Shown here: positions 3,334 through 58,660 of the stretch, in pieces | Layout of the letters: the number at the start of each line of letters is the position of its first letter | Position numbering within the stretch: position 1 is the first letter of the stretch | Assembly: GCF_003018235.1 (NCBI RefSeq) | Contig: NZ_CP027437.1 | DNA from: Escherichia coli | GTDB lineage: Bacteria > Pseudomonadota > Gammaproteobacteria > Enterobacterales > Enterobacteriaceae | DNA length: 64,000 nucleotides | Strand: one strand, 5' to 3' | The notes under the pieces: generated by a model | What the model was told of the DNA's origin: nothing | The model's database searches: none | What the model saw: the letters and a program-made list of their open reading frames with translations, nothing else | Program-made: the position numbers and the translations under genes

Positions 3334-3561
3334 ATGAAAAAGACTGCCGCAATTATTTCTGCCTGTATGCTGACTTTTGCCCTGAGCGCCTGTTCCGGTT
3401 CGAACTATGTGATGCACACCAATGACGGACGTACCATCGTCTCTGACGGCAAACCACAGACTGATAACGATACCGGTATGATTTCGTATAAAGACGCTAA
3501 TGGCAACAAACAGCAGATCAACCGTACCGACGTGAAAGAGATGGTCGAACTGGATCAGTAA
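3334..3561 (+). CDS. ygdI: Small lipoprotein (DUF903 family)
   Basis: 75-aa ORF with signal peptide and lipobox LSAC; tandem ATG, second one chosen; located between csdA and gcvB. Confidence 0.8.
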
Positions 3562-3577
3562 TTCGCGATCGCAAGGT

Positions 3578-3783
3578 AAAAAAAAGCACCGCAATTAGGC
3601 GGTGCTACATTAATCACTATGGACAGACAGGGTAAATGTACAGGAAGTGAAAAAAGGTAGCTTTGCTACCATGGTCTGAATCGCAGACCAATTGCAAACA
3701 CAACAACACAACATCACAACCGTAAGCCAAAAGTTCACCAGAACACGCATTCCGATAAAACTTTTCGTTCCGGCTCAGGAAGT
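3578..3783 (-). ncRNA. gcvB: GcvB small regulatory RNA (Hfq-dependent, represses amino-acid transporter mRNAs)
   Basis: The reverse complement of this interval reads ACTTCCTGAGCCGGAACGAAAAGTTTTATCGG...GT-rich stretch TGTGATGTTGTGTTGTTGTGTTTG...terminator hairpin GCACCGCCTAATTGCGGTGC followed by a T-run, matching the gcvB sequence as I remember it; it is divergent from gcvA as expected and 206 nt long. Confidence 0.9.
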
Positions 3784-3911
3784 GCCGCCACTATAGGTAT
3801 TTGCTGGTAGAAGCTCAACGGACAATTTATAATGGCTCAGATTAAAAAAACTAATAGGTTACACAGTGTGATCTAATTGTTAAATTCATTTAACATCAAA
3901 GTTTAAAAGCC

Positions 3912-4829
3912 ATGTCTAAACGATTACCACCGCTAAATGCCTTACGAGTTTTTGATGCCGCAGCACGCCATTTAAGTTTCACTCGCGCAGCAGAAGAGCT
4001 TTTTGTGACCCAGGCCGCAGTAAGTCATCAAATCAAGTCTCTTGAGGATTTTCTGGGGCTAAAACTATTCCGCCGCCGTAATCGTTCACTCCTGCTGACC
4101 GAGGAAGGTCAAAGCTATTTCCTCGATATCAAAGAGATATTTTCGCAATTAACCGAAGCGACGCGTAAACTCCAGGCCCGTAGCGCCAAGGGGGCGTTGA
4201 CGGTCAGTTTACTCCCCAGTTTCGCCATTCATTGGTTGGTTCCGCGACTTTCCAGCTTTAATTCAGCTTATCCGGGAATTGACGTTCGAATCCAGGCGGT
4301 TGATCGTCAGGAAGATAAGCTGGCGGATGATGTTGATGTGGCGATATTTTATGGTCGGGGCAACTGGCCGGGGCTACGGGTGGAAAAACTGTACGCCGAA
4401 TATTTATTGCCGGTGTGTTCGCCGCTACTGCTGACTGGCGAAAAACCCTTGAAGACCCCGGAAGATCTGGCTAAACATACGTTATTACATGATGCGTCAC
4501 GCCGTGACTGGCAGACATATACTCGCCAATTGGGGTTAAATCATATCAACGTTCAGCAAGGGCCAATTTTTAGCCATAGCGCCATGGTGCTGCAAGCGGC
4601 TATTCACGGGCAGGGAGTGGCGCTGGCAAATAACGTGATGGCGCAATCTGAAATCGAGGCCGGACGTCTTGTTTGCCCGTTTAATGATGTTCTGGTCAGT
4701 AAAAATGCTTTTTATCTGGTTTGTCATGACAGTCAGGCAGAACTGGGTAAAATAGCCGCCTTTCGCCAATGGATCCTGGCGAAAGCCGCTGCTGAACAAG
4801 AAAAATTCCGCTTTCGTTATGAACAATAA
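3912..4829 (+). CDS. gcvA: LysR-family transcriptional regulator of the glycine cleavage system
   Basis: 305-aa ORF with an N-terminal LysR helix-turn-helix (LNALRVFDAAARHLSFTRAAEELFVTQAAVSHQIKSLE); divergent from gcvB. Confidence 0.92.
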   Translation: MSKRLPPLNALRVFDAAARHLSFTRAAEELFVTQAAVSHQIKSLEDFLGLKLFRRRNRSLLLTEEGQSYFLDIKEIFSQLTEATRKLQARSAKGALTVSLLPSFAIHWLVPRLSSFNSAYPGIDVRIQAVDRQEDKLADDVDVAIFYGRGNWPGLRVEKLYAEYLLPVCSPLLLTGEKPLKTPEDLAKHTLLHDASRRDWQTYTRQLGLNHINVQQGPIFSHSAMVLQAAIHGQGVALANNVMAQSEIEAGRLVCPFNDVLVSKNAFYLVCHDSQAELGKIAAFRQWILAKAAAEQEKFRFRYEQ

Positions 4830-22001: not shown

Positions 22002-22367
22002 GTCGACAGGGAGTCAGACAACGAAGTGAACATCAGGATGATGACACTTCTGAAGGACACACCAGGATGGTGTTTCAGGGAAAGGCTTCTGGATGAAGCG
22101 AAGAGGATGACGCAGGACGCGTTAAAGGACACCTCCAGGATGGAGAATGAGAACCGGTCAGGATGATTCGGTGGGTCAGGAAGGCTAGGGACACTTCAGG
22201 ATGAAGTATCACATCGGGGTGGTGTGAGCAGGAAGCAATAGTTCAGGATGAACGATTGGCCGCAAGGCCAGAGGAAAAGTTGTCAAGGATGAGCAGGGAG
22301 CAACAAAAGTAGCTGGAATGCTGCGAAACGAACCGGGAGCACTGTGAATACAGTGCTCCCTTTTTTT
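22002..22367 (+). ncRNA. csrB: CsrB regulatory RNA (CsrA-sequestering sRNA)
   Basis: About 365 nt with no long ORF, carrying roughly twenty GGA-containing motifs (I count about 22 by eye, many as CAGGATG), ending in hairpin GGGAGCACTG-TGAATA-CAGTGCTCCC plus T7. The 5' end is placed from my recollection of the csrB sequence. Confidence 0.88.
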
Positions 22368-22412
22368 ATTCCTGCTATCCTTCGCGGCAGTTTTTCTTAT
22401 TGAGGTTGCTTT

Positions 22413-58298: not shown

Positions 58299-58507
58299 TG
58301 CGAGCAGCATTCCTGATTTTAAACGTGAACGCCGCTGGAAGAATCAACAGGTATAGAATGGTGTCGGGTGCTTGAGGCTGTCTGGCGTTAAGCATTCGCG
58401 AGGTTCCAGATGGACAAAAGCCCCAGGCGATATTTCTATCAACCTGAGGCCAGCGTTCGAACCCAAACAATTCGAATGTTAGTCTCTTCTTTGCAGGGAG
58501 GCAAGAC

Positions 58508-58660
58508 ATGCTGACAAAATATGCCCTTGTGGCAATCATAGTGCTGTGTTTTACAGTACTGGGATTCACGCTGATGGTAGGCGACTCGTTGTGTGAGTTG
58601 AGTATCAGAGAACGTGGTATGGAGTTTAAGGCAGTTCTCGCTTACGAATCGAAGAAGTAG
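58508..58660 (+). CDS. hokX: Hok-family type I toxin (small membrane-depolarising peptide), positionally the hokX/sokX locus
   Basis: 50-codon ORF absent from the ORF track (under 60 aa): [50 protein letters not shown], with a single TM helix, the Hok signature DSLCE and C-terminal AYES; Shine-Dalgarno GGAGG 6 nt upstream. The symbol is inferred from position next to cysH. Confidence 0.8.

Follow-up and report, generated by a model that had tools for sequence, protein, structure and literature searches.

The closest described system is gcvB of Escherichia coli K-12, which encodes an Hfq-dependent small RNA (sRNA) that prevents translation from starting by acting at C/A-rich target sites, which double as translation enhancers (PMC4474525). 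In E. coli, GcvA activates the expression of gcvB together with glycine and represses it together with GcvR (McArthur et al. 2006; PMC1557403), and the same control by GcvA, GcvR and glycine is described by Miyakoshi et al. 2022 (PMC9299463). In the latter account, three seed regions serve different targets: (i) R1 is the main seed and is used for most targets; (ii) R2 is used for cycA and (iii) R3 acts on further mRNAs such as phoP, lrp and ydeE, and point mutants of it are reported at G156, G160 and C162. More than 50 targets have been verified, most of which encode transporters of amino acids and peptides or biosynthetic enzymes, which places GcvB among the largest post-transcriptional regulons of E. 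coli (PMC9299463). GcvB is itself controlled by the SroC sponge, an RNA derived from the gltI 3′ UTR that pairs with stem–loops SL1 and SL4 and leads to decay of GcvB by RNase E (PMC9299463, PMC4474525). PMC1557403, citing Urbanowski 2000, gives two terminators as operating in E. coli gcvB and the 206-nt form of the RNA as the one needed to repress dppA and oppA.

The window, by which we mean the whole 64-kb stretch of DNA that was analysed, comes from an E. coli strain other than K-12. When it was scanned in full with Rfam 15 (cmscan) at gathering thresholds, three matches were returned, to GcvB, CsrB and sok. The GcvB match (RF00022) runs from 3783 to 3578 on the minus strand, is 206 nt long, covers model positions 1–204 of 204 without truncation and reaches 199 bits (E = 1e-46), the gathering score of the family being 42. 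The same interval is identical at 206 of 206 positions to the curated ncRNA gcvB of K-12 MG1655 (b4443, NC_000913.3 2942696–2942901), and the gene order csdA–ygdI–gcvB–gcvA–ygdD–rlmM is common to the window and K-12. On the basis of the Rfam match and the K-12 identity, the feature at 3578..3783 (minus strand) is a full-length, 206-nt GcvB sRNA gene with its +1 at 3783 and its 3′ end at 3578. An earlier interpretation made from the letters of the window alone (the sequence-only reading) had placed a 206-nt gcvB sRNA at precisely these coordinates. It had named a missing match to the GcvB covariance model as the outcome that would overturn the claim, and an alignment to reference gcvB as a further check, and both comparisons now speak for it. 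The RNA also folds more stably than expected from its composition, with an energy of −62.1 kcal/mol compared with −47.1 ± 4.1 kcal/mol for shuffled sequences (z = −3.6, with none of 200 shuffles as good). We therefore regard it as virtually certain that 3578..3783 is the gcvB gene of a non-K-12 E. coli strain, encoding the Hfq-dependent, trans-acting sRNA GcvB.

Of the 5426 complete E. coli genomes searched, all but one (5425) contain the gcvB sequence, with an identity of at least 99% in 5389 of them. Over 5 kb around gcvB, the window differs from K-12 at 92 sites (1.8%), none of which falls within gcvB; the differences in the flanking genes amount to 1.2% in gcvA and 2.8% in csdA.

In the window, gcvB lies in a gap of 350 bp (3562..3911) that is overlapped in the ORF list only by mechanical ORFs of 34–46 aa. 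The gap is bounded on one side by gcvA (3912..4829, plus strand), a 305-aa ORF for a LysR-type regulator at the position of K-12 gcvA (b2808), and on the other by ygdI (3334..3561, plus strand), a small lipoprotein gene that is convergent with gcvB and matches K-12 ygdI (b2809). The ygdI ORF has 76 aa when read from the first of two adjacent ATG codons (3331), and 3334 is the second ATG, as annotated in K-12. The sequence-only reading had described an otherwise empty gap of 350 bp between ygdI and gcvA that is filled by a gcvB gene diverging from gcvA. The ygdI end at 3561 and the gcvA start at 3912 give exactly this gap, the two neighbors agree with the ORF positions and with the K-12 gene order, and gcvB (minus) and gcvA (plus) are indeed on opposite strands, with 129 bp from the gcvB +1 to the gcvA ATG. 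Among the homologous matches listed, each of the 82 loci with sufficient flanking sequence has a divergent gcvA that starts no more than 400 bp from the gcvB +1, and the distance in Enterobacteriaceae is typically 129 bp, equal to that of the window. Among the same matches, ygdI is conserved on the downstream side of gcvB throughout Enterobacteriaceae and in Yersinia and Serratia, and is not conserved at this position in Proteus, Photorhabdus and Pasteurellaceae.

The gene is easily missed when annotation follows open reading frames, as the sequence-only reading had proposed. The PGAP RefSeq E. coli records that were listed or inspected have no feature under the gcvB match and so leave the gene unmarked; the ncRNA b4443 is carried, among the records listed or inspected, only by the curated NC_000913.3. 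A PGAP record of re-sequenced MG1655 (NZ_CP010444.1) likewise has no feature under the match. Recognition of gcvB accounts both for a 350-bp gap that looks empty and for the extreme conservation of that intergenic region. The value of the assignment is that of an annotation point only, a fix for an apparently empty gap, and it raises no new biological question.

Homologues were collected with a sequence pattern and with a covariance model. The pattern (TTGTGTTTGCA, 30–60 nt, CACTTCCTGT), scanned against one genome per species, recovered at least 120 loci, which belong to Enterobacterales and Pasteurellaceae apart from three. These three, in Borreliella, Paenibacillus and a Flavobacteriales MAG, are chance matches that fail the covariance model, and they were set aside. 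When 65 diverse homologues were aligned with MAFFT alone, long invariant blocks were seen, including the R3 region. From this alignment, RNAalifold recovered no more than SL5, the outer portion of SL1 and a helix, invariant in all columns, between R2 and the SL4 loop; the recovery was partial because MAFFT misaligned the variable hairpins, and this analysis was dropped. Our own covariance model was built from 29 well-aligned Enterobacteriaceae sequences with the Rfam structure, followed by structure-guided alignment. Among the matches listed, it identifies 95 homologues in Enterobacterales and Pasteurellaceae with scores from 262 down to 25 bits, and it scores the window gcvB at 261.5 bits.

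The covariation signal in these sequences is strong. In the alignment, which was fitted to the model structure so that pair counts lean towards that structure, standard pairs occupy 93.7% of pair cells, compared with 36–47% after displacement of the 3′ partners by 1–3 columns. The slid-partner control retains the relatedness of the sequences, and the large gap is still seen. Changes on both sides are observed for 40 of the 46 pairs, and none of 500 shuffles reaches the observed values on any measure. All five stem–loops are supported by compensatory changes, strongly so for SL1, SL2, SL3 and SL5.

With RNA position n corresponding to window coordinate 3784 minus n, the Rfam structure can be mapped onto the window gcvB with all 46 pairs canonical and an energy of −44.2 kcal/mol. 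The 5′ stem–loop of the Rfam consensus structure, SL1, spans RNA nt 9–59 (3775..3725, minus strand); its helices 1 and 2 are paired in 98% and 93% of cases, and 16 of their 20 pairs show double changes. It is followed by the R1 linker (RNA nt 60–93; 3724..3691, minus strand), which is unpaired in the Rfam consensus and holds the G/U-rich seed R1. The sequence-only reading had pointed to a GU-rich single-stranded region as the reverse complement of a CA-rich stretch at about 3694–3718. On the plus strand, 3694–3718 reads caaacacaacaacacaacatcacaa, a CA-rich sequence complementary to RNA nt 66–90, and 26 of the 28 nt at RNA positions 63–90 are G or U, so that the composition and the unpaired state are both as described. 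The centroid fold also leaves most of the linker open. In the single-sequence minimum free energy fold, the 5′ end of R1 is paired with R2. The 65-sequence alignment shows strong conservation of R1, to which the search pattern contributes by fixing 11 of its bases.

Two short hairpins follow the linker. SL2 (RNA nt 94–112; 3690..3672, minus strand) contains helix 3 of the Rfam structure, which is 94% paired and has double changes in 6 of 7 pairs. SL3 (RNA nt 114–128; 3670..3656, minus strand) has a 6-bp stem with 4 G–C pairs, all of its pairs show double changes, and it runs directly into TTTTTT, the U6 tract found by the terminator scan at RNA nt 129–134 (3655..3650, minus strand). Judged from this arrangement, SL3 and U6 would form an internal Rho-independent terminator, t1, and a transcript ending there would be about 130–134 nt long. 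The t1 hairpin and the seeds R2 and R3 were not mentioned in the sequence-only reading.

The segment between the two terminators carries the remaining seeds. The R2 core, CACUUCCUGU, occupies RNA nt 135–144 (3649..3640, minus strand) and is written in upper case in the Rfam consensus, which marks high conservation; its invariance among the loci collected here is circular, R2 being part of the search pattern. SL4 (RNA nt 145–177; 3639..3607, minus strand) presents R3 (approximately nt 150–172) in its loop in the Rfam structure. The R3 region at nt 145–170 lies outside the search pattern and is invariant or nearly so in the 65 sequences. The SL4 stem is the weakest helix of the RNA, at 77% paired. 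RNAalifold on the MAFFT alignment favors an alternative helix within 3607..3652 (RNA nt 133–177), in which UCACU, made up of the last U of U6 and the start of R2, pairs with AGUGA in the 3′ part of the SL4 loop. All columns of this alternative helix are invariant, and covariation therefore cannot choose between it and SL4.

The RNA ends with SL5 (RNA nt 178–199; 3606..3585, minus strand), an 8-bp stem with 6 G–C pairs and a 6-nt loop that is followed by TTTTTTTT, with a T8 run in the terminator scan, and with a U tail (RNA nt 200–206; 3584..3578, minus strand). This helix, helix 8, is paired in 97.6% of cases and has double changes in 7 of 8 pairs. A strong intrinsic terminator had been expected from the sequence alone, and the stem and T-rich tail found here provide one. 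SL5 and the U tail constitute the Rho-independent terminator t2 and presumably the Hfq-binding 3′ module of the RNA, the latter because GcvB is Hfq-dependent (PMC4474525).

These structural features bear on whether the interval might instead be, or also be, a protein-coding gene. An ATG-started ORF of 46 codons is present in the sense orientation at 3750..3610 (minus strand), with its AUG at RNA nt 34–36, and could be imagined as a translated small-protein gene or as the coding part of a dual-function RNA. Among the matches listed, its ATG is kept in 46 of 95 homologues. However, the ORF is kept in close relatives because the RNA itself is near-identical there. The AUG forms part of the loop of SL1, and Yersinia, Serratia, Proteus, Photorhabdus and Pasteurellaceae have lost it despite the conserved RNA. 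The length of the ORF drifts with indels (46, 44, 43 and 29 aa), and the conservation pattern of gcvB is one of helices with compensatory changes rather than of codons. E. coli GcvB was moreover reported not to be translated (PMC1557403). We rejected the coding interpretation of the 46-aa ORF on the grounds of this poor conservation and the literature (PMC1557403), and judge it very improbable that the ORF is translated. The specific proposal that GcvB of Enterobacteriaceae is a dual-function RNA whose 46-codon ORF yields a hydrophobic micropeptide has, in our estimate, a similarly slight chance of being correct. A milder variant of the dual-function idea, in which an abundant t1-terminated form of approximately 134 nt has a regulatory role of its own, is just conceivable. 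The non-coding sRNA GcvB remains our interpretation of the interval.

The position of SL5 relative to ygdI and the shared regulatory sequences near gcvA suggest another way of viewing the interval, as passive intergenic DNA composed of the gcvA promoter/operator and a ygdI terminator, with no independent RNA. It is true that the sequence preceding gcvB is shared with the control region of gcvA, and the SL5 hairpin, located 16–45 bp after the ygdI stop codon, could be taken for the terminator that this view calls for. The strand-specific signals argue otherwise. The covariance-model match is full-length and on the minus strand, with compensatory changes in five helices, and the minus strand also carries a promoter and two terminators, whereas no plus-strand terminator was found by the consensus scan. 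In addition, northern blotting and interactome studies have characterized the RNA of the identical K-12 gene (PMC1557403, PMC9299463). It would be extraordinary, in our view, if the interval held no RNA gene. The ygdI stop lies 16 bp before the 3′ end of gcvB; read on the plus strand, SL5 has A8 before the hairpin and no T run after it.

Transcription of gcvB can be related to a conserved upstream region. The consensus scan identifies a sigma-70-type promoter on the minus strand at 3790..3818, consisting of TTGAGC (−35), a 17-bp spacer and TATAGT (−10), with 9 of 12 consensus positions. Its −10 hexamer ends 6 nt short of the +1, the correct placement for a start at 3783. Among 25 Enterobacterales genera there is almost no variation in either hexamer, or in the entire block from approximately −80 to +1 upstream of gcvB (3784..3865). 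From its position and from the published promoter (PMC1557403), we infer that TTGAGC-17-TATAGT acts as the gcvB promoter. A CTAAT motif (ATTAG on the gcvB strand) is located within the conserved block at 3851..3855, corresponding to −68 to −72 of gcvB, and ATTAG is invariant in 25 of 25 aligned genera. CTAAT is reportedly the recognition core of GcvA described by Wilson and colleagues in 1995. The motif is a putative core of a GcvA binding region common to the divergent gcvA and gcvB promoters, and the region from −90 to +1 of gcvB has been described as including putative GcvA binding sites (PMC1557403). Also within the conserved block is a plus-strand TATAAT (3829..3834), which gcvA could use; at its thresholds, the promoter scan called no site on that strand.

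The promoter-like site, the conserved block with ATTAG/CTAAT and the intact gcvA are sequence correlates of GcvA control. That the gcvA product activates gcvB, also part of the sequence-only reading, is documented in the literature (PMC1557403, PMC9299463). In the strain of the window, GcvA would be expected to switch gcvB on when glycine is abundant, and GcvA together with GcvR would repress it (PMC1557403, PMC9299463).

The intactness of these elements is also relevant to the possibility that the window's strain carries a decayed or inactive gcvB copy. Natural disruption of the gene does occur. In the bovine E. coli OkiPb01677 (NZ_AP042483.1, 3001..4560), gcvB is split after nt 125 by an insertion carrying the transposase gene of the IS4-like element ISVsa5. 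The gcvB of the window, however, is uninterrupted and matches the functional K-12 allele at every one of its 206 positions, its promoter hexamers and conserved upstream block show no damage, and gcvA is full length at 305 aa. Decay was rejected based on this K-12 identity with intact signals, and we can give the idea hardly any credence. The window gcvB is intact.

GcvB from this locus would, together with Hfq, pair through R1, R2 and R3 with C/A-rich mRNA leaders, leading to a block in translation and often to promotion of mRNA decay. Repression of transporter mRNAs is documented for the identical RNA (PMC9299463, Table 1). As an in silico example, R1 (GcvB nt 61–92) pairs with positions −44 to −10 of the K-12 dppA leader with ΔG = −29.9 kcal/mol. 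The paired stretch of the leader is the C/A-rich sequence AACAACAAACAUCACAAUUGG, located just upstream of and extending into the ribosome-binding site. Shuffled sequences give −23.1 ± 2.8 kcal/mol, and 7 of 500 are as good as the observed pairing; the energy is only modestly better than that of the shuffles because any G/U-rich RNA pairs promiscuously.

The other two Rfam matches point to further RNA genes in the window. A full-length CsrB sRNA gene is present at 22011..22370 on the plus strand (RF00018, 380.9 bits, E = 8.5e-111) and would likewise be missed by an ORF track. A match to the sok antitoxin RNA is found at 58366..58523 on the plus strand (RF01794, 111 bits), and extends into the first part of a Hok-like ORF of 50 aa (58508..58660, plus strand); the pair is flanked by cysH-like and iap-like ORFs. 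From its sequence, the segment 58366..58660 looks like a chromosomal hok/sok locus. No verified GcvB target of PMC9299463 (Table 1) is known to fall within the part of the K-12 map that is equivalent to the window, as estimated from the spacing of the gcvB, CsrB and sok matches.

Compared with the described systems, the gcvB locus of the window is closest to that of K-12 MG1655, from which it is indistinguishable in the 206-nt sequence, the identity and orientation of the neighboring genes, the promoter, both terminators, the seeds R1, R2 and R3 and the stem–loops SL1 to SL5. The differences in the surrounding 5 kb include two substitutions in the gcvB–gcvA intergenic region, at 3864 and 3907, both outside the conserved block of approximately −80 to +1. 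The gene is a textbook example of an sRNA gene, described before and curated both for K-12 and by Rfam, and there is nothing new in its presence here.

Differences become apparent with increasing distance from E. coli. The R1 segment of the window carries an 8-nt insertion (uuguguug) relative to the Rfam consensus in the cmscan alignment, and the Yersinia/Serratia/Proteus-type RNAs have a gap of 7–8 nt in R1 relative to the copies of Enterobacteriaceae, including that of the window. The inner sequences of SL1, SL2 and SL3 in orthologues differ from those of the window, with compensatory changes. Pasteurellaceae GcvB is shorter, at 140–187 nt, and among the matches listed scores 25–53 bits with the enterobacterial model. 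The overall plan is nevertheless shared. GcvB of Salmonella, Yersinia and Pasteurella has the same 5′ stem–loop, R1 linker, two short hairpins, R2, R3 and terminator (PMC1557403; PMC5900567), and in all three gcvB is accompanied by a divergent gcvA, as it is in the window.
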